Source: an uncultured Clostridia bacterium
GTDB lineage: Bacteria > Bacillota > Clostridia > Christensenellales > CAG-314
NCBI GenBank assembly: GCA_947629985.1
Contig: CANRFV010000001.1
Span: 49,329 to 113,328 of the forward strand
Direction: 5' to 3'
DNA: 64,000 nucleotides
Position numbers and translations under genes: made by a program. Positions 11,874 through 64,000 of this stretch are shown here, piece after piece (the stretch's first letter is position 1; each line of letters starts with the position of its first letter). The notes under the pieces are model-generated. The model was not told the origin of the DNA. It did no database searches and saw nothing but the letters and a program-made list of their open reading frames with translations.

Positions 11874-11962
11874 AATTGTACCTCCAAGATTACTTGGCGA
11901 TAGCAATTAAGATGCATTTAACGTTCTTATTTTAGCACTCCACCAAATAAATTTCAAGCCTT

Positions 11963-30419: not shown

Positions 30420-31300
30420 TTACACTTTACCGTTACCGCCACCCGATGATTTGGGCGCGGAATTGCTTGCTTTGGGCGGATTATATGCCGGGGACGATTT
30501 CACGGCTTTCATCGCGGTGTACTCATAGTAACTTTGCGGTTTATCGGGCCGATAGAGTCCGCTCGTCGCAAAGATGCGGAGCATCTGATCTTTGTCGTGT
30601 CTGCACCAAAACGCAAGCTGATTCATAAGACTCATGTCGCTGTTGCTGTGATTATTTCTAATGTCCTCGCCGTTATAAAGCCTTTTGAATGTGTCGCCGT
30701 TTTTGGCACTCATAGCCCTGTCGAGAACCTCTCTGTCGTACATCACTGACAAACCGTCGATACCTGCGCCTACGCCTTTCCACTCGGTGCGCTTCTCGCA
30801 TTTTTGCGAAATAAACTCGCGCATACCCGTCTTATCGAGGTCTTTGAGTTCTTTGCTCGTAACGCTCGTTAAAGGGTTGCCTGTCATAGCGATGAAGTGT
30901 TTGTCTTGGTAGAACTCCAAATCACCGTCTTTCGAGAACGCTCTCACATCGAGGTTCTGCATCTTGCCGAAAACGTGGAGACCCTTACCGCTAATCGAAC
31001 GCTCGCTGTACGTCCCGTTGCCGAAACCCGCCGTTGTCGCACCAACCGAATTGATATTGCCTACCTCGTCAATACAGTCGTCCACGTCGATGCAGACGAT
31101 ATTGTCCTGCCCGTCGAGAGCGTAGGCAAGTGCAACGCCACCATTCTCTTTGGCGTACTGACAAGCCGAGTCAAAGTCCGTCCACGTTGAGGCATCGTTG
31201 CTCTTTGCCGCCTTGCCTGTATGAACATCTATGAGATACTTGTCAAATCGTCCCGTGTCCTTGTTCTCGCTCGTGCGGACGATGACCCAATTCGGTTTGG
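30420..31300 (-). other. Domain: archaeo-eukaryotic primase-polymerase (PrimPol) + PriCT-like helical tail (aa ~3820-4114)
   Basis: The DxD motif is NIVCIDVDDC (about 31074-31094) and the sGxGxH motif is SISGKGLHVFG (about 30966-30992). The tail is NGDTFKRLYNGE...SNSDMSLMNQLAFWCRHDKDQMLRIFATSGLYR. Confidence 0.75.
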
Positions 31301-48361: not shown

Positions 48362-48549
48362 TTTGTTGCCCTCCTCTTCTTCCACCGCCTGTACAACAAA
48401 AAATCCGCAAGGACTTGTTTGCGTACCCGTCAAATGCTGCGCCGCGCAATAGGCGGCGCAGACTTGAACGAGAATTGTTGTCCACGCCCTGTCGGAAGAA
48501 CGACAGGGTAGGACACAAAGGCGAAATGGAAATTTCGCTTAGCCAAATA

Positions 48550-48900: not shown

Positions 48901-51528
48901 TTACATCTCCTTCCAGGGTTTCGGTAAAATTTGGTCTGTTTCCCAATGCCACTCAGTATCGTTGCCGCTTTCAGCTTTGTAGAACAAAACTTGTTTCGGT
49001 TGAGTCAATACACCGGTTATATCAATCAATTGCCATTGGTCTTGTGTGCCAAGGAAATAAATTGTATTTAGTGTCGCATCAAATCCCTCAAAACCTATTC
49101 CAAATGCCCCACTGTTAATTGTCTTTATTGTTTCGGGAAGAACCAACCAATCAAAATTCGTACACAACATAAGAAAATCCGTTGGTATATCGGTAACTTG
49201 TGCAAGAATTATTAATGTGTTAAGATTGGAACAACCACTAAACATACCGGCGGGCAATTCAGTAATATTACATTCTCTGGGAATGATAACGTTAGTTATT
49301 GTCGCATTATTATTAAAGCAACCACTATTTTGACTACCCTGAATTACTTCTACAGATATTCCGTCAATTTTGTCAGGAATTCTCAATTTTTTGTAGTTTC
49401 CGTTATACTTTGTGATTGCGCGAGTTTGTAAGTCAAACGTCCATGTGTTATTGTAATTTTTACCACATATATCGCACACTCCATCGTAATACCCGTACTC
49501 ATCGGCAGTATCGATTTCTTCGTGTTCATCTGTTTTAAGGTAACCGCACTTTGAGCACGCCTTATTATCGCCGAGTTGATCGTGCGCTTCCAACGCCAAC
49601 TCGTTGCCGCATATGCACTTTCCTCTGTGACCGCTTTCGGGTGCTGCAGAGTCGGCAGTATAAACTACTTGACCGCTTTCTTCGCACTTAATCGGTTCTG
49701 TTTTATATGTACAATTACTATTTTGACACTCTTCGTGATGGGAGTCTGCATCAAAAACCAATTTCAGATTATGATCACGGAACCTGGCTTTGTATGTGCA
49801 TCCGTTAGCATCACAAACTTGATACTCTCCGTCAGGACTAGAATAATCTGTACGATAGTGATGTTGTTCTTTTACAAGCGCCTCACAAATGTCGCATCTA
49901 TATGTATGACCGCCAGCACCTGCATTTTCGTATACTCCGGACGAATTAACGTGTGCAACAGTCTCTGTAACGTAATCACAATCAAGGCAATTGGTGTGAT
50001 GTCCCTGATTGCCGTCTGATGCATATTCGGGATCCAAGTTGTGAGATTTAACTTCGCCTTCGTAACCACAACCCTCAGTTTTGCAAACTTCTTTGTGTCC
50101 GCTTTCACCTGCGGATTTGGTTTCGAGATCGTGGCTGTGAGCAACTTCGTATTCGCACTGCTCACATTCGAACTTGGTCTTGTCGGAGTTGATCTTTAAG
50201 CTGTGTGCGGAAACTGCTCCTTCATATCCGCAGCCTTCGGTTTTACAAACTTCTTTGTGTCCGCTTTCACCTGCGGATTTTGTTTCGAGAGCGTGGCTGT
50301 GAGCAACTTCGTATTCGCACTGTTCGCACTCGAACTTGGTCTTGTCGGAGTTTATTTTGAGACTGTGATTTGCAGTGGATGTGTAACCGCAACCTTCAAC
50401 AGTACAGGAAACGGTATGTTGTTCGCTGCCGGTAGATTTATATGAAAGAGTGTGGGTGTGGGCAACTTCGTATTCGCATTGTTCACACTCGAACTTAGTC
50501 TTATCGGAGTTAATTTTAAGACTATGAGCGGAAACAGCACCTTCATATCCACAACCTTCGGTTTTGCAAACTTCTTTGTGTCCGCTTACACCGGCGGACT
50601 CTACCTTGATATCGTGGTTGTGAGCAACTTCGTATTCGCACTGTTCACATTCGAACTTGTCCTTGGCGGAGTTGATTTTGAGACTGTGTTTTGCTGTGGA
50701 TGTGTAACCGCAACCTTCAACAGTACAGGAGATGGTATGTTGTTCGCCGTCGGTAGATTTATATGAAAGGGAGTGAGTGTGGTTTTCTTCATATTCGCAT
50801 TGTTCGCACTCGAATTTAGTCTTGTCGGAGTTGATTTTGAGACTGTGAGCGGCAACTTCGCTTTCATAGCCGCAGCCATCTACGCCGCAGACAGACTTGT
50901 GTCCGCTTTCGCCGGCGGATACAGTTGTAAGTTGGTGATCGGTTACCGTAACGGTGCAGGTTGCCGTTTTGCCGTCGCCCGCCGTTGCAGTGATGACCGT
51001 TTCGCCTGCCGCTACTGCCGTGATTTTGCCGTTGTTGTCAACTGTGGCAACCGCAGGAACGCTTGACGTCCAGGTTACGGTCTTGTCGGTAGCATTTTCG
51101 GGGAGAACTTGCGCTGTGAGCGTATCGTCTTGCTTGGTAACGTGTACGCTGAGCGACTGCTTGTTGAGAGAAACGCTCTCTACTGCCACCGTGGTGGACT
51201 TGAAGGTAACGGTTATGGTCGTGTCTTGTTGTACTTTGAACACAAATTTGCCTTCGCTGTTGAGTTCGCCGACTTTTTCTTCCGAGCCGAGCTTGAATGA
51301 CTCGACTGCGTAGCCATCAACCGGCTTTACGGTAACGGTGAGTTCCGTGCCTTCTTTGTATTGACCGTCCTGCGATTCGGGCGAAAGCGTAACTGAACCT
51401 TGCGCCTTGTCATAATTCGCAATCTTAACTGAATAGGTTTTGTTGCATGCGGCAAACGTCAGGCAAAGAGCCACGAGCGTTACCAAACACAACAGAACAA
51501 TTAATGTGTGCTTTTGGTTTTGTTTCAT
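48901..51528 (-). CDS. Surface lipoprotein: Big_2 domain, tandem four-Cys modules, C-terminal BspA-type LRR
   Basis: The lipobox is LCLTFAAC and the Big_2 unit is VTWTSSVPAVATVDNNGKITAVAAGETVITATA. About 7 units of ...GHKEVCKTEGCGYEG...HSLKINSDKTKFECEQCEYEVAH... are followed by degenerate Cys modules and LRR units (ITELPAGMFSGCSNLNTLII). Confidence 0.85.
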   Translation of the reverse strand: MKQNQKHTLIVLLCLVTLVALCLTFAACNKTYSVKIANYDKAQGSVTLSPESQDGQYKEGTELTVTVKPVDGYAVESFKLGSEEKVGELNSEGKFVFKVQQDTTITVTFKSTTVAVESVSLNKQSLSVHVTKQDDTLTAQVLPENATDKTVTWTSSVPAVATVDNNGKITAVAAGETVITATAGDGKTATCTVTVTDHQLTTVSAGESGHKSVCGVDGCGYESEVAAHSLKINSDKTKFECEQCEYEENHTHSLSYKSTDGEQHTISCTVEGCGYTSTAKHSLKINSAKDKFECEQCEYEVAHNHDIKVESAGVSGHKEVCKTEGCGYEGAVSAHSLKINSDKTKFECEQCEYEVAHTHTLSYKSTGSEQHTVSCTVEGCGYTSTANHSLKINSDKTKFECEQCEYEVAHSHALETKSAGESGHKEVCKTEGCGYEGAVSAHSLKINSDKTKFECEQCEYEVAHSHDLETKSAGESGHKEVCKTEGCGYEGEVKSHNLDPEYASDGNQGHHTNCLDCDYVTETVAHVNSSGVYENAGAGGHTYRCDICEALVKEQHHYRTDYSSPDGEYQVCDANGCTYKARFRDHNLKLVFDADSHHEECQNSNCTYKTEPIKCEESGQVVYTADSAAPESGHRGKCICGNELALEAHDQLGDNKACSKCGYLKTDEHEEIDTADEYGYYDGVCDICGKNYNNTWTFDLQTRAITKYNGNYKKLRIPDKIDGISVEVIQGSQNSGCFNNNATITNVIIPRECNITELPAGMFSGCSNLNTLIILAQVTDIPTDFLMLCTNFDWLVLPETIKTINSGAFGIGFEGFDATLNTIYFLGTQDQWQLIDITGVLTQPKQVLFYKAESGNDTEWHWETDQILPKPWKEM
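50031..50940 (-). repeat. Tandem near-identical coding repeats, ~126-nt period with two alternating subtypes (~252-nt super-repeat)
   Basis: Long DNA stretches recur, e.g. gagcaacttcgtattcgcactgttc...gaacttggtcttgtcggagtt and ccttcggttttacaaacttctttgtgtccgctttcacctgcggatt. The protein units SAGESGHKEVCKTEGCGYEGAVSAHSLKINSDKTKFECEQCEYEVAHSH occur almost verbatim three times. Confidence 0.85.
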
Positions 51529-51716
51529 TGTTGTAATACTCCTTGTAATTATTTTTTCGCAGTTATTTATGGCGCGAATCCCATCTCTTTACGGAAGTGT
51601 GGTTCGGTTTTGTTTGACCGACAATTTTGCCTAAACTTTTTACACCCGAAATGTAAACTCAAACCATAGAAGTTCTCACCCCTTTTTTGTTCTGTATTTA
51701 AGTAACACAACGCCTG

Positions 51717-54305
51717 TCAGCCCTCGAAATAGAACTGTGCGTTGTCAATATTGCCCCAAGGACCTGCGCCCGTGAAGTCTGCCTTGACGTGGATACCTAT
51801 CGTTACGCTTTGAACGTTGCTCGCGTCGAACTCCGCGCCCGTAACGGACGTTCTGGTCCACTTTTGCCAACCGTTCATCTGCGCCTGCGTGCCCGTAAAG
51901 GTATGCTCCGTGCCGTCCTTGTATTTGACCGTGATGTATGCATGTATGTCGCAATTTGTTCCGTCCGCGCCTTGGAAATCGAAACTGCACCCCCACTTGC
52001 CACTACCGTAAGTTTGAAGTTTGCTTACGTCTACGGTTTGATAGAGATCGAAATCGACCGCTTTGTCATCCCAGAAGTGGAAACTGTTTATTCCCATGCG
52101 GGCGTTGCCTATGTTGTTGCTTACAAATAGTTGCAAATTTTCCGTCTTGGTGTAACGAAGCCGCCAATTGCCGAGATCCGCCTGAACAAACTTGACCGTG
52201 GCGTCGCCGTAGGATTGGAATCCCTCGAAACTGCCTTCGTCCAAAATGTTGACGTTCATTACCCACACGTAGCAGTAGCAAGTTCCGCCAAAGAGCGTTG
52301 TGCCCGTTACCGTGTACATATCCACGGCGGATATATATTGCGTGAGTTGCGCTTGCTCGATGTTCCAAATGGCGTCTGTTACCTGTTTGGAGCCGTTGTT
52401 GAGAACGATACTGACCGTCTTTGGCAACTCTATCGTGCCTTCGTTGACCGTGTAGTAAACTTCCTGATCGGACAGATAGTCGGCGCGCAGGTCGGTTGTG
52501 TGTCCGCCTTTGACATATTTGAACACTTTGAGCGCCTCTATCGGCGAACCGTCGGACAGGAAAAATGCGTTGTTGTCTACCATAGAACCACCGCCGACAG
52601 GTGCGCCCGTAGGACTTGCCGCAGGTGCGGAACTATCGTACGAGTGAGCGTATGACGTTGCCCATCCGCAACCGTATCTGAGACACAAGTCGCGATTTGT
52701 GGCGCCTTCGGCGCTGTCGCTTGCCGCAACCCAGGTTCCGCCCCAATATGCCACGCCGATACCGTAGTCGCCGAGATCCGCAATGGCTTTGATAACTTCA
52801 CGCACGGCGTTTGCCATACCTTGAACGGTTATCGGCTGAGTTGTCGTTTCCAGCGCGGTGCCGCCGCAACCGTCAAAGTCCTCCTGCGAGAAGGCGTATG
52901 CCGTTTCCAAAACCATTACGTCCTTGCCGAAATCTTTGTGAACGTTGGCAAGCTGTTTGGTAAGCGCGCTGAGCGATCCGTGCGACGTGTAGTACGGATA
53001 CCACGATGTGCCGAATACGTCGTAATCGACGTTGTTGTTTTTGAGCGTTTGCGCCTTGGAATAATAGGTGTTGTCCCCCGCGTTGGTGAAGTGGACGGCG
53101 ATTTTTGCACCGCCTTCCGCAACGGCGCCCGTAACTTTGCGCACCGCTCTTGCACCGGCATTCATCAGAACGGAAATGTTGGTCCAATTGGTTTCGCCCG
53201 CCATTCCGCCCGTGGTTTCGTTGCCTATCTGCACCATTGTGATTTTGACATCGGTGGCTTTGATTTGGGTGAGCGCGTCTTCGGTGAAACTTTCGAGAGC
53301 ATCAGCCTTGGCGGACAATCCCATGTTTGCCCACGCTTTGGGCGCTTTTTGCTTGCCGGGATCTGCCCAGAAATCCGAATAGTGGAAGTCGATGATGACT
53401 CCGAGTCCGACAGCCTGACAACGTTCCGAAAGCGCAACGGCGTTGTCTACATCGCAATTGCCGCCGCCGTAGGGTTGCGTTTTGGCGCTGTCGGCATAGG
53501 GATCGTTCCAAACGCGAATACGAATATCCGTTATGCCGTTGTCTTTCAACACTTGAAGAATATCGGCGTCTTGCCCGTCAAAATCCTTGAATGTCAGACC
53601 GCTTTCGCTGCGAGCCTTTTCGACGGAAAGGAGTTCGGACGCGTCCATTGCCATGATGAAATCCGTGCGGTCTTTGAGACTCGGCACGTCGCCGACATAC
53701 AGTTCGTTTGCGCTCGCTTCGCCCGCAACGGTAACGACGCACGTTGCTCTGTAATTGTTTGTAGACGTCGCCGTTATTACAGCCTGTCCGCCGCCAACAG
53801 CAGTTACAAGTCCGCTTATGCTGACCGATGCGACCGATGTGTTGGAGGACTCCCAGGTGAGAGTTTTGTCCGTGGCGTTTTCTGGCTCGACGTTCGGGAC
53901 AAACAAATATGTATCGCCCACATTGAGGGACAGCGACTGCTTGTCAAGCGAAACTCCCGATACGGGGACGGGCTGCTTGGACGGATCCACTACTGTTACT
54001 ATACATTGCGACGACTTGCCACCGACAGATACGCGGATTGCCGCCTTGCCGTCCTTTATACCCTTGACAACGCCGTTGTCTACCGTTGCGACAGTTGCGT
54101 CCGACGAACGCCAATTGGCGCTTATGCCGCTTGCTTCCTGCGGAAACACGGTGTATGTAAGCGTAGCTTGCTCTCCGACGTTGATCGTGAGCGTTGCTTG
54201 GTCGAGTTCGACGCTTGACACTTCGGCTGCCGTGTCGCAAGCCGCAAGCGGAACCACCATGCACGCTATCATTAAAATTGCCAATAAAATACTTTTTAGT
54301 TTCAT
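51717..54305 (-). CDS. ganB: Secreted lipoprotein arabinogalactan endo-beta-1,4-galactanase (GH53) with two N-terminal Big_2 domains and a C-terminal beta-rich (CBM-like) region
   Basis: The lipobox is VVPLAAC. The GH53 core has IRIRVWNDPY...GGGNCDVDNAVALSERCQAVGLGVIIDFHYSDFWADPGKQKAPKAW, the acid/base MVQIGNETTGG and the nucleophile VMVLETAYAF. Confidence 0.9.
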   Translation of the reverse strand: MKLKSILLAILMIACMVVPLAACDTAAEVSSVELDQATLTINVGEQATLTYTVFPQEASGISANWRSSDATVATVDNGVVKGIKDGKAAIRVSVGGKSSQCIVTVVDPSKQPVPVSGVSLDKQSLSLNVGDTYLFVPNVEPENATDKTLTWESSNTSVASVSISGLVTAVGGGQAVITATSTNNYRATCVVTVAGEASANELYVGDVPSLKDRTDFIMAMDASELLSVEKARSESGLTFKDFDGQDADILQVLKDNGITDIRIRVWNDPYADSAKTQPYGGGNCDVDNAVALSERCQAVGLGVIIDFHYSDFWADPGKQKAPKAWANMGLSAKADALESFTEDALTQIKATDVKITMVQIGNETTGGMAGETNWTNISVLMNAGARAVRKVTGAVAEGGAKIAVHFTNAGDNTYYSKAQTLKNNNVDYDVFGTSWYPYYTSHGSLSALTKQLANVHKDFGKDVMVLETAYAFSQEDFDGCGGTALETTTQPITVQGMANAVREVIKAIADLGDYGIGVAYWGGTWVAASDSAEGATNRDLCLRYGCGWATSYAHSYDSSAPAASPTGAPVGGGSMVDNNAFFLSDGSPIEALKVFKYVKGGHTTDLRADYLSDQEVYYTVNEGTIELPKTVSIVLNNGSKQVTDAIWNIEQAQLTQYISAVDMYTVTGTTLFGGTCYCYVWVMNVNILDEGSFEGFQSYGDATVKFVQADLGNWRLRYTKTENLQLFVSNNIGNARMGINSFHFWDDKAVDFDLYQTVDVSKLQTYGSGKWGCSFDFQGADGTNCDIHAYITVKYKDGTEHTFTGTQAQMNGWQKWTRTSVTGAEFDASNVQSVTIGIHVKADFTGAGPWGNIDNAQFYFEG

Positions 54306-54339
54306 AATACCCTCCGATATTAACCGTTTTTTTCAAATT

Positions 54340-55620
54340 TCAGGATATGCGGCGCAGTTTTTTGCGCGGTTCTTCCGCAGACGAACTTTCTTCCGCAACC
54401 GTCACGGAAACGGGCGCGTCGTCCGAATCGGAAAGAAGGTTTACTTCCGTCTCTGCCGAGAAGAAATGCGTTACGCCACTTTCAAATGTAATGTAAATGC
54501 GCGTTCCCGAAACGAGTTTTTCGACCTGCGCCGCCGTAAACGGAGCCGTCGGAACGCGAACGATAAGCTCCTCTCCCGTTTCCGTTTGGACGTGCAGATG
54601 GAAGGAACTTCCCATATTTTCGCGAACCCTTATTACGCACGGGATCGCTTCGGGGTTTTCGTGGTTGGACAGCGATATATGTTCGGGACGAACGCCGAGA
54701 ACGATATCTTGCGGTTGAATATCCTTTTTACGAAAAATCTCGCCGCGTGCACCGTCTATTCGTTTTACAACCCCGCAAAGATTGACAAAGTATCCTTCGG
54801 CATCTCGTTCGAGCCGAGTGCGGAATATGTTCATCTTGGGCGAGCCGATAAACTCCGCGACAAACAGATTTTGCGGCATATCGAACAACTCCGTGGGCGT
54901 TCCCACTTGCTGTATCACGCCGTCCTTCATAATGACTATCCTGTCTGCAAGCGTCATCGCCTCAACCTGATCGTGCGTAACATAGATAAATGTCGTATCG
55001 ATCTTCTTGCGCAGTTCGATCAATTCCGAACGCATTTGAGAACGCAACTTGGCGTCAAGGTTTGAAAGCGGTTCGTCGAGAAGAAATACCGATGCGTTTT
55101 TTACCATTGCGCGACCTATTGCAACGCGCTGCTTTTGTCCGCCCGAAAGCTCACGCGGACGACGTCCGAGATACTCCGTTATGCCGAGAATTTCCGCCGC
55201 ATTGGCAACCCTGTCAGCAATTTCTTGACTTGTCAACTTTCTATTTTTGATTTTTACATCCCGAACATTTCCGTCCTTATCCGTAACGGGGACTTCCACA
55301 GGTATACGCATAAGCGTTAGCGGAAACGCAATGTTTCGGAATATTGTATAATTGGGATACAACGCATAATTTTGGAACACCATCGAGATATCTCTGTCCT
55401 TGGGTTTCAAGTCGTTGACTACCCTGCCACCGATTTTGATAGTGCCTTCGGTAATATCTTCCAAACCCGCTATCATACGAAGCGTTGTGGATTTGCCGCA
55501 CCCCGAAGGACCGACAAATACGACAAATTCTTTGTCTTTAATTTTCAAGTTGAAGTCTTTTACTGCGACTACGTTCTTGCCGTATACTTTTTTGACTCCT
55601 GTCAATTCTACTTCTGCCAT
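54340..55620 (-). CDS. Sugar ABC transporter ATP-binding protein (MalK/MsmX/UgpC family) with an internal insertion and an acidic tail
   Basis: The ATG at 55620 gives [14 protein letters not shown]. Walker A is GPSGCGKST, the signature is [14 protein letters not shown] and Walker B is [13 protein letters not shown] ~30-aa insertion ([25 protein letters not shown]) sits between the Q-loop and the signature. The track start at 55731 overlaps the permease gene. Confidence 0.9.
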
Positions 55621-55628
55621 TTTGCACC

Positions 55629-56663
55629 TTACCCTTTTACCGCGCCGCCTGTTACACCTGCGACGTAATATTTTTGCAACAAGAGGAACAATACTGTAAT
55701 CGGCACTGCCACTACAACTCCGCCTGCACAAAAAGTTGTATAATAATCGTTCTTCATAGAATCAGTGATCAGCCACTGCAATCCTGCCGCGACGTTATAG
55801 CCTGCCGAAGCGTTGTTCGCCATAAAGGTCGCCATGACGAAATCTCCCCACGGTCCCATAAAACCCATCAATATCGTATATATGACTATGGGTTTCGATA
55901 GCGGTAAAATCAATTTGAAAAAGATTTGAAGCCGTGTTGCTCCGTCCACTCTTGCCGCTTCGTCGATCGATTTGGAAATCGTATCGAAGAAACCCTTGGC
56001 GATGTAGTAACCCATTCCCGAACTTGCGACATAGATTATCATCAATCCGTATGGTGCGTTTGCGTCCGTCAAGTTCCAATCGTGCATCCACGTGTACAAA
56101 AGAATGAGCGTCAGGAAACCGGGGAACATTCCGAATACAAGTATCAAGTTCATCAAAAACTTGCGTCCATTGAAACGGAATCTCGACAGTACATAAGCGA
56201 CCGACAATTGAAATATCGTTTGTACCACAGCGGTTACAATTCCCATCAAAAAGGTGTTGCCGTACCATTTAAGGAAAAGTCCGTTTTGGAAAGTAAACAA
56301 CCGAGCATAATTGTCAAAGCCCCATTGCTTGGGTATGAGATACCCTGCAAGTCCCGTGCTTTCGCAACGGAATGATTCGAGAACAATACCGATAAACGGC
56401 AAAATCCAAACGAAACAAAGCACTGCCAAAACAATATGTATTACAATATTTACAACTCTGTTTTTCGTTTTTTGCGAAACACGTCCTTTGTTTGCAACTG
56501 CCGTCGTACTTGTGGAGAGAGTGTCCGTCTGTGCTACGAAAATGTCCGTATATTCCGGCGTGAAGTTTTCGGCAACTTCCATTTCAATATTGGACTCTAC
56601 GGTCTTGGTTTCACTACCGTAAAATTCAAACACTTCGCCGTTTTCAATCCGTTCATTCATCAT
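55629..56663 (-). CDS. Sugar ABC transporter permease (MalG/GanQ-like) with a ~60-aa N-terminal cytoplasmic extension
   Basis: Six TM helices and the EAA-type loop SIDEAARVDGATRLQIFFKLILP. Confidence 0.88.
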   Translation of the reverse strand: MMNERIENGEVFEFYGSETKTVESNIEMEVAENFTPEYTDIFVAQTDTLSTSTTAVANKGRVSQKTKNRVVNIVIHIVLAVLCFVWILPFIGIVLESFRCESTGLAGYLIPKQWGFDNYARLFTFQNGLFLKWYGNTFLMGIVTAVVQTIFQLSVAYVLSRFRFNGRKFLMNLILVFGMFPGFLTLILLYTWMHDWNLTDANAPYGLMIIYVASSGMGYYIAKGFFDTISKSIDEAARVDGATRLQIFFKLILPLSKPIVIYTILMGFMGPWGDFVMATFMANNASAGYNVAAGLQWLITDSMKNDYYTTFCAGGVVVAVPITVLFLLLQKYYVAGVTGGAVKG

Positions 56664-58438
56664 GAAAAGTCCTCCTCTCTTCGCGTGGAAGGCATAATCG
56701 TGAAAATGATGAGCGAAAGCACCGATACCACAATAAATATCATCGTTCCGATAACCGACGCCATCTTGTAGTTGGCTTCGCTACCCGTAGTAATGCCGAA
56801 CAGCCAAGTGATAAGGATAGTTGTATCTCCCGCAATGTATCCGCCGACATCTCCCCAAGCAAAATGCGGAGGACCGCCCTGCGTCAAGAGATAAATGACG
56901 TTGAAGTTGTTGATATTGGATACAAAGTTCGTCAGAAGATACGGTCCCGTTACGAACAACATATACGGCATCGTAATTTTGCAAAACTGCTGAAATGCGT
57001 TTGCGCCATCAATTTGCGCCGATTCGTACAGATCTTGCGGAATATTCATCAAAATGCCCGTCGTTATCAACATCAGATACGGTATGCCGACCCAAATGTT
57101 GATAACAAGCACCATTACTTTGGCAAGCGTACCGTCGCCCCAAAACGATATAGGTTTGTCTATCCAACCCCAATTCATAAGCGTGGCATTTACTATGCCG
57201 TTGTCCGCAAACAAATTGCTGACGTACAACAGCGATATGAACTGCGGTATGGCTATCGTCATAACGAGAACTGTTCGCCAAAACTTTTTGATTTTGATAC
57301 CCTTTTTGTTTATCAGCATTGCTACAAACATGCCAAGGAAGTAATTGCTGAACGTTGCAAACACTGCCCAAATCAATGTCCAGGCAAGTATCTCGCCAAA
57401 TGCCAAAGACAACTGCGAGCCAAAAGTAAACATCTGATTGAAGTTTTCCAATCCCACCCATGTGAACAGGTTGTTGTAGCCGTCAGCTTCGTAGTCGTAA
57501 CTTGTAAAGCCTACAAGTATCATAAAGATGATAGGCAATATCGTGAACATCACTATGCCGAATACCGGCAGCGACAACAGCGTCTTGTGGAATTCGTCGT
57601 CGGCAAGAGACTGCACGTCTTCTTTACTCGTCTTTATCTTTTTGCCGCTTGCGGTGATTTCATCCAGAATGCGACACTGCTTTACATTGAGCCGCCAAGT
57701 GTATATGAACGCTATTATAAAGAATATCGTGATAAGTCCATACAGCAATATCTTAAATGAGTTGTCCACGTGAACGGTCGTATAGACGTCGAGAATTGGG
57801 TCATATTCTTCAATTGTAGCGACTGTGCCTAACGAGCCGAACTTGCCAAGCCAGGCTCCGCCCCAAAATACCATATACAATATGAATGCCGCTTCAAACA
57901 AGAAGAATAACAATCCGCGCAACCACTGCCCGTGAGTAAGATTGCCGAACCCCATCACTAAATAGCTGACGCGTGTTTTCCAACTGCCTTTTTTGAATGT
58001 CGTACCGATATCTTTGATGTTTTCCCAAACGGAAATTCCGAAGTCTTTGATTTTCAATCCAAGTTTTACGAATTTTTTTGCGAACCATTTGGGTATTCCG
58101 ACAAAAAATTGTTTGAATTTATATAGTATCCTTTGAAACCAGTTCAATCTTTGATATTCCAATGTGGTCAAAGGTTTATTGCCGGAAATCTTCTTTTCGT
58201 AGCGTCTTTCGAATTCTGCAAAAATTTCATCGCCGTCGTCATTGGTAATTACTTCATAGCATTTACCGCCGTCGTTTTTTAAGACGCGCGCAAGCGCAAT
58301 CTCTTCCTCTTCGGAAGAGTTTGCGCTTTGTACCGGAGTAAATGCCGCATATTTATCTCCACGGTATGTAAATTTCATAAGCAGACGCATTGAAATCGAT
58401 TCGCCGCCGATTGTCAAATCCGTCAAAAATTCTTTCAT
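56660..58438 (-). CDS. Sugar ABC transporter permease (MalF/GanP-like) with a ~110-aa N-terminal soluble extension
   Basis: The EAA loop is LYESAQIDGANAFQQFCKITMP. The N-terminus FTYRGDKYAAFTPV...EEEIALARVLKNDGGKCYEVITNDDGDEIFAEFERRYE looks DUF1292-like (recollection). Confidence 0.88.
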   Translation of the reverse strand: MKEFLTDLTIGGESISMRLLMKFTYRGDKYAAFTPVQSANSSEEEEIALARVLKNDGGKCYEVITNDDGDEIFAEFERRYEKKISGNKPLTTLEYQRLNWFQRILYKFKQFFVGIPKWFAKKFVKLGLKIKDFGISVWENIKDIGTTFKKGSWKTRVSYLVMGFGNLTHGQWLRGLLFFLFEAAFILYMVFWGGAWLGKFGSLGTVATIEEYDPILDVYTTVHVDNSFKILLYGLITIFFIIAFIYTWRLNVKQCRILDEITASGKKIKTSKEDVQSLADDEFHKTLLSLPVFGIVMFTILPIIFMILVGFTSYDYEADGYNNLFTWVGLENFNQMFTFGSQLSLAFGEILAWTLIWAVFATFSNYFLGMFVAMLINKKGIKIKKFWRTVLVMTIAIPQFISLLYVSNLFADNGIVNATLMNWGWIDKPISFWGDGTLAKVMVLVINIWVGIPYLMLITTGILMNIPQDLYESAQIDGANAFQQFCKITMPYMLFVTGPYLLTNFVSNINNFNVIYLLTQGGPPHFAWGDVGGYIAGDTTILITWLFGITTGSEANYKMASVIGTMIFIVVSVLSLIIFTIMPSTRREEDFS

Positions 58439-58452
58439 TGCCGTCTCCTTTT

Positions 58453-59685
58453 CTAATCTTTGAGATCGTTCAACGAATTGTTATAAGTTGTAAGAAGCGA
58501 TTGCAATGTGGCGTCGTCTTCTTCACTTGTCGCCGCATCGCCCACCATCGTGTCAAGTTTTGCCCACCAATTTGTCGGATATTGTCCTTGCAACGTCGTC
58601 TTTGCCTGTTTAAGAAGAACATCCAATGCGGGAGACGTAGCGTCTGCCGCCGCTTTAATGTTGGACGGTCCCCATCCGACTGTTTCAAAACGTTCACGCT
58701 GACATTCCTCGCTCGTAAGGAATATGGCGAGCTTTTGCAGATACGCCGCTCTGTACGCATCACTTTGGGGCTTAACGCCCATCAATTTGCTGCCGAGATA
58801 AGAAACAAGCTGATAACTCTTGCCGTCAACGGTGAACGAAGGCAACGGAGCCACGCCGAGATCGCTTCCCAACGCTTGTTGTGCCGCTTTGTAACCCCAA
58901 ATACCGCTTACGACGACCGCAGAAGGTATCGCCGCGTTGAAATCGCTCACTTCGGCGGAAGGATTGTAAACGCTTGATTTCAAAAGCTTTTGCAAACCTT
59001 TCAAAGCAATCACACCGTTTGCCGAAGAGAAATTGTCCTCATAGCTCTTGAAATTGCCCTTCTCGTCCGTAGTCCATTCCGACTGGCAACCTGTCGCATA
59101 AAAGAACGATGCCGAATACCAACTTCCACCGTCTTTTGTGAGGTTCATCGAGAAGTTTTTGCCAGCAGCTTTGCAATCTTCGATAATATCTTCGAGACTT
59201 CCGATATGCTCTTCCTTTACAACGCGTTTGTCATAGTACATAAAGTAACCGTTGTCTTTCGTAAACGGAAAAGCGCAAATGGTATCTCCGATTTTTGCCG
59301 CCGCAACGGACGCGTCATCACAAGTAGATGTAATTGCCGTTACCGAAGCGGTATTGAGTTTGCACAACAAATTGGAGTGGACGACGCGTGCAAGTTGATC
59401 CTGCGCAAAACAGAAAATATCCGCACACGACGCCGGAGTGGAAATCGCATTGCCTGCGGCTTTGGATTCGCTGACAATTTCGATTTTTGCCTTGAACTTA
59501 ATGCCGTCCTCGTTTGTTTCGTTAAATCTTTCAATTTGCTTTTGTGTCAGAGCATCCGTTCCTTCGCCGACCCAAACGACAATTTCATAGTCGTAGTCGC
59601 CGTCCTTGTCGCATGCGGACAAAACGCATACGATTGGAATAAGCATCAAAATACTCAACAAAATGATTAGAGCGCGTTTTTTCAT
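58453..59685 (-). CDS. Extracellular solute-binding lipoprotein (family 1; GanS/CycB/MalE-like)
   Basis: The lipobox is VCVLSAC. Its size (410 aa) and its position directly upstream of the two permease genes fit this class. Confidence 0.85.
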   Translation of the reverse strand: MKKRALIILLSILMLIPIVCVLSACDKDGDYDYEIVVWVGEGTDALTQKQIERFNETNEDGIKFKAKIEIVSESKAAGNAISTPASCADIFCFAQDQLARVVHSNLLCKLNTASVTAITSTCDDASVAAAKIGDTICAFPFTKDNGYFMYYDKRVVKEEHIGSLEDIIEDCKAAGKNFSMNLTKDGGSWYSASFFYATGCQSEWTTDEKGNFKSYEDNFSSANGVIALKGLQKLLKSSVYNPSAEVSDFNAAIPSAVVVSGIWGYKAAQQALGSDLGVAPLPSFTVDGKSYQLVSYLGSKLMGVKPQSDAYRAAYLQKLAIFLTSEECQRERFETVGWGPSNIKAAADATSPALDVLLKQAKTTLQGQYPTNWWAKLDTMVGDAATSEEDDATLQSLLTTYNNSLNDLKD

Positions 59686-59750
59686 GTTTTTTCTCCTTTT
59701 TTTTGTTTTTTGTTATTCGGTTAGATTGTTTCTGTACTATGTTTTAGTAC

Positions 59751-59776
59751 AGAAAGGGCAGGGGCGCCCCTGCCCC
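59751..59776 (-). terminator. Rho-independent terminator after the intracellular GH53 gene
   Basis: The 20-nt perfect palindrome gggcaggggcgcccctgccc (59756-59775) is followed on the minus strand by tttct. Confidence 0.7.
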
Positions 59777-59792
59777 GCAAAACGGTGCATTT

Positions 59793-60899
59793 TTAGGTTT
59801 TATACTCATCGAATGCGGGCAATTTGTGCCCGTTATAGTCGAACAGACAGTGATTTGCGTACTCGTTCCTGTTTGAACGCTTATCGCTGTGAACATACTC
59901 TTTTCCCGCGTCGGAAGCCCAACAATTTTCACCGCAAGGCGTCCACAACGGCTCCCAATAACATACAAGTTCTATCTTGTGTTTTTGAGCGAGTGCAAGA
60001 AAATCCTTAACAAACCTGCGCTGTCCGTCAACCGTCAACGGATATTGCGCATTGAATGTGGCATCTTCGTGAGTGCCACCGTTTACCATAAGCGCCTCGC
60101 TGTCTTCGCTCTTTATATAATCTTCCGTCGTAAAGGCGCGACCGAGTTCCACTACCATAATGCGCTTACCAAATTTTTTGCAATTCTCAACATTGGCAAA
60201 AAATTGTTCGAACGGACCGTGCCAATATGAATAATAGGACATGCCGATTATGTCGTAATCGACGTTGGCAGCCTGCATTTGTGAATAAAACTCATTGTAA
60301 ACCTTTTGGTCGTAGCTTCTTTCCAAATGCAAAATTATACCTGCTTTCGGATACACTTCTCTGCACGCTTTTATTCCGGCGTTAAGCAACTTAATAAGGC
60401 TATCGTAATTGGTGCGCGAGCCGTCGGGTTGTTCGTCGAGATGCCCGAAGGGCCACAATATTCCGTTTGTAATTTCGTTGCCGACTTGAATAAATTCTAT
60501 GTCAATACCGTGTGCTTTGGCTGTTTTCAATGTTTCGGCGGTAAAAGCGTAAACATGATCGACAAGGCCCTGCAGATCGAAGTTTTGCCAGGCTTTCGGG
60601 ACGCACTGTTTTGCGGGATCCGCCCAAAAATCACTGTAATGAAAATCCGCCATTATCTTGTAACCTTTCTCTTCGGAAAGCATTGCAAGTTTGATAAAAT
60701 TATCCACGTCGCAAGTGCCGGCAAGATACGGCTCTCCGTTTCGTCCGTAAGGGTCGTTCCAGATGCGTATGCGCATAACATCCACACCATTGTTGCTGAA
60801 AGCATCCAATGGCTCTATTTCTTTGTTTCCGTCAAAATATTTGGCGTGATGTATATTTTCCATTTCAAGATATGTAGAAGCATCTATACCGAGTCTCAT
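59793..60899 (-). CDS. GH53-family galactanase homologue without a signal peptide (predicted cytoplasmic)
   Basis: The ATG at 60899 gives MRLGIDASTYLEME. The core has MRIRIWNDPY...AGTCDVDNFIKLAMLSEEKGYKIMADFHYSDFWADPAKQCVPKAW, FIQVGNEITNG and IMVVELGRAF. Confidence 0.85.
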   Translation of the reverse strand: MRLGIDASTYLEMENIHHAKYFDGNKEIEPLDAFSNNGVDVMRIRIWNDPYGRNGEPYLAGTCDVDNFIKLAMLSEEKGYKIMADFHYSDFWADPAKQCVPKAWQNFDLQGLVDHVYAFTAETLKTAKAHGIDIEFIQVGNEITNGILWPFGHLDEQPDGSRTNYDSLIKLLNAGIKACREVYPKAGIILHLERSYDQKVYNEFYSQMQAANVDYDIIGMSYYSYWHGPFEQFFANVENCKKFGKRIMVVELGRAFTTEDYIKSEDSEALMVNGGTHEDATFNAQYPLTVDGQRRFVKDFLALAQKHKIELVCYWEPLWTPCGENCWASDAGKEYVHSDKRSNRNEYANHCLFDYNGHKLPAFDEYKT

Positions 60900-60900
60900 A

Positions 60901-61161
60901 TTATTGTTCACCTGCCTTATGTTCACTGAATTTGGGCGGTTCGTTATCTTCGCCGAAATCCACAACGCGCTGACGAAGCCTTCCGTATTTTTGTTTGAAT
61001 TGCTCGTTAAGCCCGATTACCTCGTCTTCGGTTCCACGAAATGCGCAACGCAAACAGTAATATTGCTTTGTTTTTTCATCGTAAAACATATCCATATCGA
61101 TGTCGCGCATAAAACAACGCGGACAACGGTAATTCAATTTACCTTTTGTAGCTTGAGCCAT
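60901..61161 (-). CDS. Small zinc-ribbon protein
   Basis: The 86-aa ORF has YRCPRCFMRD...YYCLRCAFRG (CxxC...CxxC). It overlaps the upstream gene by 28 nt and ends 2 nt before the GH53 start. Confidence 0.55.
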   Translation of the reverse strand: MAQATKGKLNYRCPRCFMRDIDMDMFYDEKTKQYYCLRCAFRGTEDEVIGLNEQFKQKYGRLRQRVVDFGEDNEPPKFSEHKAGEQ

Positions 61162-63002
61162 GTTTCCATTCCTCCCTTTGAAATATTCTTTCTTGCCCGC
61201 AAATGGAATACGGGAGAGAACGCGATCCCCTCTTCAACTTCGAATTCATCGGGATAATCCGTTGATGACCTGTCCGCCTCGTTTCCTTCCAAAGTTATTT
61301 GCGTGTGGATACTCGGCAAGCAAGCATTAGCATATATTTTTCCTACGGATTTACGTCCCTTGTACTCGTAATCGATCAATCCACCGCCGCAACAATTAGT
61401 GTAAACCCACAAACTCACATCTGTCATATCGGGTTGATATTCCGTCGTGCCGAAACCGCCCGTCAAATACTCTTCGAGCGTGACGACTTCGCCGTGCAAA
61501 TCGTTAACTATCTCTCGCCTCGTCATCATATTGCCCGTTTCTTCATCGAAGAAGAATATCGAACGCACGGTTATATCCAAACCGTCCAATGTAACCGTTA
61601 CGGGATCGGCGACAATTTTTACGCCTTTATCTGTTTTTTCATATCTTGCCATTGTACGGCAAAGACACAAATCGGCGGTTTGTCCGTGATAATGGATCTT
61701 GCACGACTTTACCGTGCCTGCGCCGGCATAGTGTGTGAAATAGCCCGCGCGATAGTTGGCTTGTATGATATAGGGATAGGACGCGTCGTACACATTATCT
61801 GTACCAATACCAACCTTTTGCGGAATTTTGGCAACATAGGGACGCAAATCTATCATTGCGCCGCCTTGGTTGAAATCCAAACAGCAGCGAAGCGACGGAG
61901 ACGCATACCAAAAATATTCCTTGTTGCTTCCATAGAGAATGTCCTTCCACATGGCGCACTCCGCACGTTTGTAATTCGGGTGGGTCTCACGGTAATAATC
62001 GGCAAGTTCGCTCATGGTCATATCAATGCATTTGCCTTCCTGTTTAAGCTTGCCGTAATATCTCATTACATCTTTATAAGACTTTGCAAGACGTTCATAG
62101 GGAGACTCCCACCGCCCTGCCTTGTTGAGCCAACCCGGTCCAACGAACATCATGTTGTAGCAGAACCCGTCATTGTACTTGGCGAGATGACGATACTGAT
62201 CTATAAGGTTGTAAAGGTAGGGATATTCCGTTCCTTTCTCATCTTCGTAATAAATCATACCGCGCAGCACATTTTGCGGATGCGTTCCGAAGTTTGATCC
62301 GTTGCCGTCAAAGCAAGCAAGTAAGTCGCGGGAGAGATGCGGAATTGCGACAATACCACTATCGTCATCTCTATCGCTTGCGGGGCAATGAGAATTTACT
62401 TTTGACGGGATCCAAGGATTCCACGGACCGCCGTCCATAAATGTGTACCAACTATTGTTGCAAGTGTGATAGGCTTTCGGTCCTTCTTCCCAACAGGTGG
62501 CAATGGCACATTTGACGGAAGGATATTTTTCCTTTATGTAGTTGATTGTAAACGCATCAAGGAAGTAACTGCCGGTAGATTCCGGATAGAAGCCGAATTT
62601 TTCATAGAAAAGCCCGAAACAGTCATCTACTATCTCTTTCTTCCTTTTTTCATCAAACATCCAAATACAAAAATCCTCTGTTTGGTATTTTTCTTTGAAC
62701 TGTTTGCAAGGCAAGCCCAAAAGCGACAAGCCTATTTCATCGCCGTATTTATCATGGTGTTCTTTTGCAAGCTCCACTATCTTGTCAGAAAACAACGAAG
62801 CATACGTTATTTGAATGGTGGTTTTCAGACCGCATTCATGAGCCGATTCCTGTTGAAATAGAAATATATCCAGCGACTCGTCCTGCACATCTCTTTTGCC
62901 ACCGAGTGCCTTTTCCGCATATTCAGGCGAAAGCTCAGGGCGATGAATAATATTCAATGCCAATTTGCTTTCGTTGTTTGTTAATTCTGTTTGACTTTGC
63001 AC
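61134..63002 (-). CDS. 622-aa cytoplasmic protein of unknown family, candidate carbohydrate-active enzyme
   Basis: A long uninterrupted ORF with no signal peptide and no motif I can assign. It is the first gene of the operon, sitting where gan loci usually carry the GH42 beta-galactosidase. Confidence 0.75.
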   Translation of the reverse strand: MQSQTELTNNESKLALNIIHRPELSPEYAEKALGGKRDVQDESLDIFLFQQESAHECGLKTTIQITYASLFSDKIVELAKEHHDKYGDEIGLSLLGLPCKQFKEKYQTEDFCIWMFDEKRKKEIVDDCFGLFYEKFGFYPESTGSYFLDAFTINYIKEKYPSVKCAIATCWEEGPKAYHTCNNSWYTFMDGGPWNPWIPSKVNSHCPASDRDDDSGIVAIPHLSRDLLACFDGNGSNFGTHPQNVLRGMIYYEDEKGTEYPYLYNLIDQYRHLAKYNDGFCYNMMFVGPGWLNKAGRWESPYERLAKSYKDVMRYYGKLKQEGKCIDMTMSELADYYRETHPNYKRAECAMWKDILYGSNKEYFWYASPSLRCCLDFNQGGAMIDLRPYVAKIPQKVGIGTDNVYDASYPYIIQANYRAGYFTHYAGAGTVKSCKIHYHGQTADLCLCRTMARYEKTDKGVKIVADPVTVTLDGLDITVRSIFFFDEETGNMMTRREIVNDLHGEVVTLEEYLTGGFGTTEYQPDMTDVSLWVYTNCCGGGLIDYEYKGRKSVGKIYANACLPSIHTQITLEGNEADRSSTDYPDEFEVEEGIAFSPVFHLRARKNISKGGMETWLKLQKVN

Positions 63003-63266
63003 ATCAATTCCTCCAACTTGATTATAAATTCGGGACTATAAGTTTAATATCGCCAAAAGGCGACAATATCCCTTTCCCAATTTAGTGATTAAATTATACA
63101 CGACAATAAATCTCATTTCTACCCCAAACTCTGCAAGAAATATATGATTTCTAAAAAAAATTTGCGTTTTAATCAAGGCATTATTATTACTCTTTATAAA
63201 TAAAAGAAATTAAGATAAACTGCAAAAAAATCGGAACATTCTTGTTGAGAACATCCCGAATATACA

Positions 63267-64000
63267 TCAACCTAATAACCCGAATTTGTATCGAATGAAA
63301 TATGAATTTATTTTATCCTTATTTAATAACGGTTGTGGAAACGAAGGAGTATTTACGGCATCGGGAAAGAATTGCGGTTCGAGAGCAAAACCTTCGCGCG
63401 GAATGAGATCGTGCGTGCCGTTAAAACCATGCAAAAAATTACCCGAATAGAATTGCAGACCGGGCATATCCGTAAATACTTCCATTTTTATGCCGCTTGA
63501 TTCGTTGAAAGCCAATGCCGCACATTCGTTTGCGCTATGCCGCAACACAAAATTGTGGTCGTAACCGCTTGTTGGCTGCAACTGAGCGGAATTTATGTCT
63601 TTGCCTATTTTTTTAGGATGACGAAAATCCAACGGCGTACCTTCTACCGAAGTAATCTCTCCCGTGGGAATTTGCCCCGCTCCCATCGGCGTGTAACAGT
63701 CGGTGTTTATTTGCAGATATGTTTCGTCAACTGTTTGTTCTGTGCCAAGGCGGAAATACGGATGGATTGTAGGTGCCCAAAACGTATCCTTGTCGCAGAC
63801 GGCGGAAAAACGCACGGTAAGCGACGCTCCGTCCAAAACAAATTCCACGCGCATAGTCAAATTACCGGGGAATCCCTGATCGCCGTCGGGACTGTTCACA
63901 GACATTACAAGCGACGTTGTATCGACCGTCTGCACCGAAAAAAGACGTTGATCAAAGCCGATTTTACCGCCGTGCAAGGTGTTTTCGCCGTCATTTTGCG
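63267..64000 (-). CDS. galM: Aldose 1-epimerase (galactose mutarotase), N-terminus beyond the window
   Basis: The frame stays open to position 64000 (...NDGENTLHGGKIGFDQRLF...). Other matches are DGDQGFPGNL, TPMGAGQIPTGE, GYDHNFVL and FALEPQFFPDAVN, the mutarotase signatures. Confidence 0.88.
   Translation of the reverse strand, partial: QNDGENTLHGGKIGFDQRLFSVQTVDTTSLVMSVNSPDGDQGFPGNLTMRVEFVLDGASLTVRFSAVCDKDTFWAPTIHPYFRLGTEQTVDETYLQINTDCYTPMGAGQIPTGEITSVEGTPLDFRHPKKIGKDINSAQLQPTSGYDHNFVLRHSANECAALAFNESSGIKMEVFTDMPGLQFYSGNFLHGFNGTHDLIPREGFALEPQFFPDAVNTPSFPQPLLNKDKINSYFIRYKFGLLG

Follow-up and report, generated by a model that had tools for sequence, protein, structure and literature searches.

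Gene content of the galactan locus

The window analysed here, a stretch of 64,000 nucleotides from contig CANRFV010000001.1 (assembly GCA_947629985.1) of an uncultured Clostridia bacterium (Christensenellales, CAG-314), contains a gene cluster that a sequence-only reading had described as a locus for beta-1,4-galactan utilisation, with one secreted and one predicted cytoplasmic enzyme of glycoside hydrolase family 53 (GH53). Our analysis supports this description, and points to a pair of adjoining genes, encoding proteins here called U622 and Znr86, as a candidate for the last step of the breakdown. The galactan region comprises 11 features, all on the minus strand: eight full genes, a partial galM gene, a hairpin and a promoter-like site. 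They are listed below in the order in which they are transcribed:

63267..64000 and beyond, minus strand: galM, aldose 1-epimerase (PF01263, E 2.4e-49), with its C-terminal 236 residues inside the window
63231..63259, minus strand: terminator-like hairpin, a 12-bp stem followed by a T-run, immediately 3' of the galM stop codon (consensus scan only)
63093..63121, minus strand: sigma-70-like promoter TAGAAA-17-TATAAT, 10 of 12 positions matching, about 90 nt upstream of U622 (consensus scan only)
61134..63002, minus strand: U622, a 622-residue cytoplasmic protein (open reading frame), with a predicted (beta/alpha)7 barrel and C-terminal mutarotase-like beta-supersandwich
60901..61161, minus strand: Znr86, an 86-residue Cys4 zinc-ribbon protein (open reading frame overlapping the 3' end of U622)
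59793..60899, minus strand: GH53c, a 368-residue GH53 homologue without a signal peptide (PF07745, E 5.9e-88)
58453..59685, minus strand: solute-binding lipoprotein of the CUT1 / MalE-CycB-GanS type (PF13416, E 6e-21; lipobox LSAC)
56660..58438, minus strand: MalF-like permease of the ATP-binding cassette (ABC) type with an N-terminal DUF1292 extension (PF00528, PF06949; NF008232 MalF, E 1.6e-49)
55629..56663, minus strand: MalG-like ABC permease (PF00528; NF008231 MalG, E 3.5e-39)
54340..55620, minus strand: MalK/UgpC/MsmX-like ABC ATPase, 426 residues (PF00005, PF17912, PF08402; NF008653, E 8e-126)
51717..54305, minus strand: GH53s, an 862-residue surface lipoprotein with two Big_2 domains, a GH53 domain and C-terminal beta-domains (PF07745, E 1e-92; Big_2, E 2e-24)

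Open reading frame and domain scans found the genes named in the sequence-only reading at the same coordinates and on the minus strand; galM, which had been said to follow the cluster, lies upstream of it in the direction of transcription. The hairpin and the promoter-like site stand between galM and U622, although the number of promoter-like sites found by the consensus scan was not above shuffled expectation. Scanning all 64,000 nucleotides against Rfam gave no RNA elements.

Several contigs carry the exact Znr86 protein, and one of these, L092, is 100% identical to window positions 50901-64000 over 13,100 bp, continuing for 7.1 kb past the window. Its gene order is two divergent AraC/PocR regulators, galT, galK, galE, a DUF6119 gene, galM, U622, Znr86 and GH53c onward. 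The full length of galM (327 residues) was read from this contig, and the start of the 426-residue ATPase was adopted from its gene call. The genes galM, galK, galT and galE are probably under the control of the divergent regulators. No GH42 or GH2 domain was detected among the open reading frames of the window scanned against Pfam, nor in the 7 kb of L092 past the window end. The earlier claim that the locus has no recognisable GH42 or GH2 enzyme is thus borne out over this larger region, and the possibility, raised beforehand, of such a gene just outside the window in the same operon is ruled out by L092.

A 93%-identical relative (L001/L002) has the same gene order minus the DUF6119 gene. 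This gene encodes 536 residues (L092 5167-6777, between galE and galM) and is missing at that position in L001 and L002; it is likely a gene of the mobile or defence type that entered the Leloir cluster recently.

A surface and a cytoplasmic GH53 enzyme

GH53s has a leader of the lipoprotein type, MKLKSILLAILMIACMVVPLAAC, with LAAC as the lipobox. Its PF07745 match (E 1.1e-92) covers model positions 4-340 of 340. Residues 214-859 align with the multidomain GH53 structure 9FLI (E 6e-112), the C-terminal region end to end, and the alignment with BlGal (1R8L, E 1e-101) includes the long loop. Leader, Pfam matches and 9FLI alignment agree with the prediction of a secreted or surface GH53 with two Big_2 domains and a C-terminal beta-rich region. 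GH53c begins with MRLGIDAS and has no leader; PF07745 covers model positions 3-338 of 340, and the best structural relative is the archaeal IaGal (7OSK, E 7e-60), with BlGal at E 2e-53. When aligned with BlGal, IaGal and 9FLI, both proteins keep the GH-A catalytic pair, with the acid/base in a GNE motif and the nucleophilic glutamate after strand 7 (IQVGNEITNG and IMVVELGRAF in GH53c, VQIGNETTGG and VMVLETAYAF in GH53s). Judged by full-length model and catalytic motifs, the products of 51717-54305 and 59793-60899 can both be assigned to the GH53 endo-beta-1,4-galactanase family.

In related loci, a heuristic leader search found no leader in any of 67 short GH53 proteins, and a leader in 49 of 54 long ones. 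The split into leaderless short and leader-bearing long enzymes makes a cytoplasmic GH53 a consistent design across loci, in keeping with the earlier assignment of the second GH53, lacking a signal peptide, to the cytoplasm. Non-classical secretion of GH53c was considered and rejected: no positive evidence for it was found, and both the length/leader split and the linkage to the leaderless U622 argue against it. A leaderless GH53 within a locus of several GH53 genes is not unprecedented, as three GH53 genes are known from each of Roseburia hominis and R. faecis, only two of them with signal peptides (PMC5320581).

The ABC importer

An ABC importer had been noted in the cluster, and Pfam and NCBIfam matches confirm it, with genes for a solute-binding protein, MalF-like and MalG-like permeases and a MalK-like ATPase. 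The best PDB relatives of the solute-binding protein are the CUT1 solute-binding protein 4UA8/4UAC, MalE1 and the solute-binding protein 2ZYK. Homology places the importer in the Mal/Cyc/Gan CUT1 family, and its context suggests specificity for galacto-oligosaccharides; GanSPQ-type galactan importers are homologues of MalEFG/CycB. The DUF1292 domain of the MalF-like permease is N-terminal and cytoplasmic (residues 12-79, E 3e-6), an unusual fusion for a sugar ABC permease.

U622 and Znr86 form a conserved two-gene module

U622 and Znr86 are a tightly coupled, widely conserved and obligate two-gene module. In 76 of the 80 analysable loci, an open reading frame that has a CxxC motif and can be aligned with Znr86 begins precisely 28 nt ahead of the U622 stop codon, and the cysteines C13, C16, C36 and C39 of Znr86 are all invariant in an alignment of 41 sequences. 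An overlapping gene for 68-77 residues is kept beside U622 homologues of only 36-44% identity from unrelated environments. In two homologues, P0183 and P0187 (27% identical to U622; 671-676 residues), the zinc ribbon is naturally fused at the C-terminus, Rosetta-stone evidence for physical cooperation of both proteins. The predicted role of Znr86 is that of a structural subunit or a partner in folding; the zinc-ribbon part of a P0183 fusion model, with a predicted local distance difference test score (pLDDT) of only 57-76, is uninformative on docking. The sequence-only reading had listed the zinc-ribbon protein and the 622-residue protein as cytoplasmic partners of the locus. Both are indeed present and U622 is leaderless, but the 28-nt overlap and the fusions identify them as a conserved module rather than miscellaneous genes.

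Within the final codons of U622, an AGGGAGG Shine-Dalgarno sequence precedes the ATG of Znr86 by 7 nt. Such a strong internal site suggests coupled initiation, not frameshifting, and makes a programmed frameshift that would produce a U622-Znr fusion from the 28-nt overlap an unnecessary assumption. One Znr86 homologue is labelled 'Candidatus Fimimonas sp.', which our copy of the NCBI taxonomy files under Myxococcota; the contigs in question have a Clostridia-like gene content, and the filing is probably an artefact of taxonomy placement.

Predicted fold of U622

U622 itself has no match in Pfam, NCBIfam or the sequences of the PDB. Relatives are abundant: more than 2,500 in a database clustered at 90% and 506 clusters at the 50% level, nearly all about 600 residues long and unnamed. 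A collection with one genome per species gave at least about 570 matches. Where the hosts of these matches have names, they are gut and rumen Clostridia, Christensenellaceae, Oscillospiraceae, Lachnospiraceae, Erysipelotrichaceae and metagenome-assembled genomes (MAGs) of Bacilli. By the leader heuristic, 80 of 81 U622 homologues have none.

The AlphaFold2 model, based on a 36-sequence alignment, has a pLDDT of 90.6 and a predicted template modelling (TM) score of 0.91. It shows a (beta/alpha)7-type barrel and a helical linker over residues from about 13 to 340, followed by a large beta-sandwich from about residue 345 to 620. In a Foldseek search of the PDB, the first match is 3LM3 (E 6e-18, TM-score 0.65 normalised to 3LM3, 447 aligned columns), a structural-genomics "putative glycoside hydrolase/deacetylase" with domains DUF3863/3864. 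The GH57 4-alpha-glucanotransferase of Thermococcus litoralis is next (1K1W/1K1X, E 1e-12 to 3e-14, probability 1.0), with a global TM-score of just 0.27 because the domain orientation differs. The CE4-type deacetylase 3QBU was also matched. The C-terminal supersandwich resembles that of galactose mutarotases (GalM), domain 5 of LacZ, GH36, GH129 and GH38; the LacZ matches are confined to this domain (about 340-360 aligned columns in the high-probability matches, TM-score about 0.2).

Sequence comparison gave little more. The U622 family profile has a marginal match to 3LM3 in the PDB (E 0.007) over a shared GGPWxPWxPS-like motif, and PF12979 touches two of 36 family members at E 0.0036, below the Pfam threshold, with no match to the window protein. 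Neither U622 nor the 36 family members match the GH57 and GH38 Pfam models at E up to 1, and no GH57 chains appear in the sequence or profile searches of the PDB with U622 at E up to 10. Nor does U622 match known beta-galactosidase families in Pfam or NCBIfam, a scan that contained no specific models for GH147 or GH165. According to a 2026 review, the only families with beta-galactosidases are GH1, 2, 35, 42, 147 and 165 (PMC13501991).

Among U622 relatives down to 22% identity, E89, E173, R225, R247, Y262, N277, R372, D385 and R387 are invariant; D149 (in at least 90% of sequences), E172, H222 and D226 are nearly so. Five arginines (R225, R247, R372, R387 and R418) are invariant or near-invariant. 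D149 and E172/E173 are candidates for the catalytic residues, and E89 is close to them. Compared by eye with what we take to be the GH57 motif sequences, four U622 motifs resemble conserved sequence regions (CSRs) of that family, which offers a lead only: H20-R-P, G87-D-E89-I, Y146-F-L-D149 (CSR-3-like) and W171-E-E173-G-P-K (CSR-4-like). In GH57 the glutamate nucleophile is at position 4 of CSR-3, a region with an aromatic first residue, and the aspartate donor is at position 3 of CSR-4; the family already includes alpha-galactosidases (PMC6037648). U622 is predicted to be a retaining glycosidase with a GH57/GH38/DUF3863-like barrel and beta-supersandwich. A full-text literature search returned no paper on DUF3863, and nothing on the U622 family or on a zinc-ribbon-partnered glycosidase was found by searches on DUF3863, 3LM3/BDI_3119, intracellular GH53 and new galactan-active or GH57/GH38-like families.

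Gene context across related loci

Gene layouts were compared among the 82 best loci, and the context within 10 kb of U622 was counted in the 50 of them, called complete here, whose sequence extends 5 kb or more to either side. Three layouts recur. In type A, that of the window, the order is galTKE(M)-U622-Znr-GH53c-ABC-GH53s. Type B, found in many MAGs of Clostridia and Erysipelotrichaceae, reads [GH77]-pullulanase-GH53(long)-GH13-U622-Znr-GH53c-ABC, and its pullulanase, long GH53 and GH13 bear lipoprotein leaders. Type C, from Lachnospiraceae, is LacI-SBP-MalFG-U622-Znr-[GH42]-GH53c (SBP, solute-binding protein), accompanied by galE/K/T and a long GH53.

An ABC importer lies within 10 kb of U622 in 49 of the 50 complete loci and a GH53 gene in 48. 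Alpha-glucan genes (GH13, GH77 or pullulanase) are present in 25, Leloir genes in 16 and GH42 in nine. GH53 occurs without alpha-glucan genes in 24 of these loci, and alpha-glucan genes without GH53 in one. Znr86 is followed by a gene for a short GH53 in no fewer than 54 of 75 loci. GH42 adjoins U622-Znr in 12 of all 82 loci, in the order SBP-MalF-MalG-U622-Znr-GH42-GH53c, and GH13 is the gene called immediately upstream of U622 in 17 of 81. GH2 domains were found in only two of 56 other large neighbour proteins. In operons of the type seen in L050, L054 and L056, U622-Znr is the sole enzyme encoded with an importer, and GH53 is lacking.

In a number of loci (L011-L026, L035-L038, L040, L044 and L046-L047) the galactan module is merged with starch genes, namely extracellular lipoprotein GH13, pullulanase and cytoplasmic GH77, around a single MalEFGK-type importer and in at least three different gene orders. 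One explanation may be a transporter of dual specificity, making use of the likeness in helical shape between amylose and beta-1,4-galactan.

Other glycan loci contain distant homologues of U622 (34-44% identity): L083-L085 (P0127), L087 (P0122), L089 (P0126) and L090 (P0128). Their neighbours include GH4 with ADP-ribosylglycohydrolase-like genes; GH123-like, GH36, GH43, GH28 and GH2 genes; a CE2 esterase; and a 1616-residue protein with SLH, rhamnogalacturonan I (RG-I)-lyase-like and carbohydrate-binding modules (CBM), next to an AraC two-component system. The wider U622 family probably spans several specificities.

A proposed pathway for galactan breakdown

The locus serves the utilisation of beta-1,4-galactan (type I arabinogalactan), and we propose, as a reading about as likely to be right as wrong, that U622-Znr86 is a new cytoplasmic glycosidase finishing the galacto-oligosaccharides that GH53 cannot cleave. 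Surface GH53s would cut galactan to short oligosaccharides, probably with a degree of polymerisation (DP) of about 3-4, to judge from its extended loop, which is like that of BlGal and 9FLI. The solute-binding protein, MalF/MalG-like permeases and MalK-like ATPase would import these, and the IaGal-like GH53c would shorten them in the cytoplasm to galactobiose or galactotriose and some galactose. U622/Znr86 would then free galactose from these limit products, the role of the GH42 enzyme GanA in classical gan loci, and GalM, GalK, GalT and GalE would pass it into glycolysis.

The need for a terminal enzyme follows from what is known of GH53. Substrates of DP3-4 are enough for characterised members, none of which cleaves galactobiose; BlGal and IaGal stop at galactotriose, and the fungal GH53 enzymes and BtGal at galactobiose (PMC8447715). 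If the adjacent Leloir genes are to receive galactose, another enzyme must therefore act after GH53. The same data mean that import of "fairly long" galacto-oligosaccharides, which a cytoplasmic GH53 had been taken to imply, is not required. U622-Znr86 is the only other conserved cytoplasmic enzyme-like component, has the architecture of a glycosidase and possesses conserved acidic residues, and is therefore proposed as the terminal enzyme; fold, invariant acidic residues and gene context all point this way. The exo step, thought before to have no obvious enzyme, has in this conserved module of glycosidase-type fold a candidate. The operons in which U622-Znr accompanies an importer alone also fit an exo-acting enzyme that finishes the job by itself.

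Several observations weigh against this proposal. Half of the complete loci also contain GH13, GH77 or pullulanase genes, and the nearest solved relatives of the solute-binding protein are those of the CUT1 and MalE1 type named above. In Lachnospiraceae a GH42 gene stands beside U622-Znr (in nine of the complete loci and 12 of all), so the pair is not simply a GH42 substitute, and the idea of U622 as a plain GH42 replacement is weakened. The nearest folds of known function, GH57 and GH38, would make U622 a relative of alpha-specific retaining enzymes, not of beta-galactosidases. What the analysis establishes is the identity of the domains, their placement at the surface or in the cytoplasm, the make-up of the module and its link to GH53. 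The substrate and reaction of U622/Znr86, even its activity as a hydrolase, and the part played by the zinc ribbon are inferred.

More specifically, and tentatively, since we give it somewhat less than an even chance, U622 and Znr86 may constitute a new two-component glycoside hydrolase family, with a barrel catalytic subunit and an obligate Cys4 zinc-ribbon subunit, acting as a cytoplasmic beta-1,4-galacto-oligosaccharide exo-beta-galactosidase or 4-beta-galactanotransferase in hundreds of gut and rumen Firmicutes species. U622 may have been recruited from alpha-1,4-glucan enzymology, because beta-1,4-galactan and amylose share a helical shape, in parallel to the recruitment of the transporter from Mal to Gan.

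Alternative roles for U622-Znr86

The pair could instead be an accessory enzyme, removing substituents or unusual linkages that block GH53 and GH42 on imported type I arabinogalactan oligosaccharides (alpha-L-arabinopyranosyl or alpha-L-arabinofuranosyl caps, for example, or beta-1,3 or beta-1,6 kinks), with a beta-galactosidase of GH42, GH2 or GH35 encoded elsewhere in the genome. We consider this unlikely, albeit worth keeping in mind. The GH42 genes directly beside U622-Znr in 12 of 82 loci suggest non-redundant roles, and the distant homologues reside in mixed pectin/hemicellulose loci with GH28, GH43, GH36, GH2, CE2 and the RG-I-lyase-like protein. The nearest folds of known function, GH57 and GH38, act on alpha-linkages (Foldseek; PMC6037648), as such a role would allow. 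However, 41 of the 50 complete loci have no GH42 within 10 kb and some operons consist of an importer and U622-Znr alone; in the window strain, the Leloir genes are immediately upstream, the cluster has no further glycosidase and the window contains no linked genes for arabinose catabolism.

A disproportionating transglycosidase, a '4-beta-galactanotransferase' as counterpart of amylomaltase or the GH57 4-alpha-glucanotransferase, would give the intracellular endo-enzyme a purpose: galacto-oligosaccharides would be shuffled, galactose freed and the longer chains re-cut by cytoplasmic GH53. The near-obligate adjacency of U622-Znr to a cytoplasmic endo-GH53 is otherwise without rationale for substrates of DP3-4, the 4-alpha-glucanotransferase of Thermococcus litoralis ranks first among the matches of known function, and GH57/GH38-type enzymes are retaining, therefore able to transglycosylate. 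The idea is one of analogy alone, as no beta-galactan disproportionating enzyme is known; U622-Znr operons without GH53 exist (L050, L054 and L056), and GH53c could simply handle imported oligosaccharides of DP4 or more. It seems to us rather improbable.

We see a similarly small chance that U622 is a GH57-like enzyme active on alpha-glucans (maltodextrin), that the importer is specific for maltodextrin or has dual specificity, and that the link to GH53 results from the merging of starch and galactan loci. The GH57-like fold, the MalF/MalG-like permeases, the solved relatives of the solute-binding protein (4UA8/4UAC, MalE1, 2ZYK), the alpha-glucan genes in 25 of 50 complete loci and the GH13 gene immediately upstream of U622 in 17 of 81 would all agree with it. 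The asymmetry of the context counts (24 complete loci with GH53 and no alpha-glucan genes, against one for the reverse) argues strongly the other way. Moreover, the window operon, flanked by Leloir genes, has no alpha-glucan gene, the Lachnospiraceae version is a pure LacI/GH42/GH53/galKTE locus, and no U622 family member matches the GH57 Pfam model at E up to 1. The Mal-like character of the importer is also to be expected of a galactan importer, given the homology of the GanSPQ type to MalEFG/CycB.

It is very improbable that U622 is no glycosidase at all, but acts as a deacetylase or esterase, both known from its (beta/alpha)7 'glycoside hydrolase/deacetylase' superfamily, as a phosphorylase, or as a sugar-binding regulator with a nucleic-acid-binding zinc-ribbon partner: the top structural match is annotated only as 'putative glycoside hydrolase/deacetylase', 3QBU is also matched, the five conserved arginines could bind an anion such as phosphate and zinc ribbons often bind nucleic acids, but barrel plus supersandwich is the architecture of GH57 and GH38 glycosidases, beta-1,4-galactan oligosaccharides have, to our knowledge, no acyl groups needing removal, AraC/PocR regulators are already present in the locus, and a zinc ribbon naturally fused to the enzyme C-terminus argues for a subunit, not an independent regulator.

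Neighbouring genes

Directly downstream of GH53s are genes for two leader-bearing proteins with Big_2 domains and BspA-type leucine-rich repeats, of 875 (48901-51528) and 1470 residues (44021-48433). The 875-residue protein contains many tandem Cys-rich 'CGYE...KFECEQCEYE' units (DUF7838-like). Both may be adhesins, or proteins for glycan capture, encoded beside the galactanase; a few related loci (L004, L005, L012 and L021) gave fragmentary tblastn matches to them.

An integrative conjugative element occupies window positions 8407-42764, upstream of the galactan locus. It encodes two large serine recombinases (8407-10134 and 10131-11906), TraG/VirD4-type coupling and ATPase proteins, a MobL relaxase, two DNA methylases and an ArdC-like anti-restriction protein, together with a giant protein of 4114 residues (30420-42764) with MutS_I, SNF2/ResIII, DUF3848/3849 and NrS-1 polymerase HBD domains. 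The GC content falls to 0.35 at 8-12 kb of the window. Just outside the recombinase end of the element, a gene at 6872-8131 encodes a HipA-like toxin kinase (HipA_C and Couple_hipA).

Implications

Pectic galactan is a common dietary fibre, and its breakdown by Bacteroides, Bacillus and Bifidobacterium is textbook knowledge, with GH53 followed by GH42 or GH2. The matches in at least about 570 species-representative genomes suggest that a large group of Firmicutes from gut and rumen, most of them uncultured, relies on another set of cytoplasmic enzymes for galactan. If U622-Znr86 were the missing galactosidase or transferase, it would found a new CAZy family, would remedy a systematic shortfall in the annotation of galactan use from metagenomes, in which these loci at present seem incomplete, and would provide a new enzyme for making or trimming galacto-oligosaccharide prebiotics. 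Were it active on beta-galactosides, it would be the first such enzyme on a GH57/GH38/DUF3863-like fold. Expression of U622 without Znr86 might fail, and co-expression is advisable.

Comparison with known systems

The classical gan/gal loci are ganSPQAB of Bacillus subtilis, ganEFG-ganA/ganB of Geobacillus stearothermophilus and galCDEGRA of Bifidobacterium breve. The window locus shares with these a secreted or surface GH53, a MalEFG/CycB-like CUT1 importer and an apparent cytoplasmic breakdown to galactose followed by the Leloir pathway. It differs in having no clustered GH42 (GanA/GalG) or GH2 gene, within the locus and the 7 kb beyond, and in having an extra cytoplasmic GH53 and the U622-Znr86 module. 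It also encodes its own ATPase, has the Leloir genes directly adjacent and is flanked by AraC/PocR-type regulators, whereas the classical loci have the LacI-type GanR.

The arabinogalactan utilisation loci (gpPUL) of Roseburia hominis A2-183 and R. faecis M72/1 are, like the window locus, from gut Firmicutes and encode several GH53 enzymes; only two of the three GH53 proteins have a signal peptide and CBM61, which implies that one is intracellular and that import runs through an ABC transporter (PMC5320581). Unlike for the window locus, neither a U622/zinc-ribbon module nor the absence of a beta-galactosidase is reported there (PMC5320581).

In its predicted (beta/alpha)7 barrel followed by a beta-supersandwich, U622 resembles GH57 (1K1W) and GH38. 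It does not belong to either family at the sequence level, and the known members of both are alpha-specific, unlike the beta-galactan context of U622. We know of no zinc-ribbon partner for GH57 or GH38. By Foldseek, U622 has the same fold as the DUF3863/DUF3864 protein BDI_3119 of Parabacteroides distasonis (3LM3), although identity is 16%, scores are below the Pfam thresholds and 3LM3 is shorter (434-449 residues). A dedicated small partner gene has a precedent in the GH136 lacto-N-biosidase LnbX, which is encoded beside LnbY, a partner needed for the active enzyme; the folds and partner proteins are unrelated to U622 and Znr86, and the likeness is one of analogy only, in the pairing of an enzyme with its own small partner.

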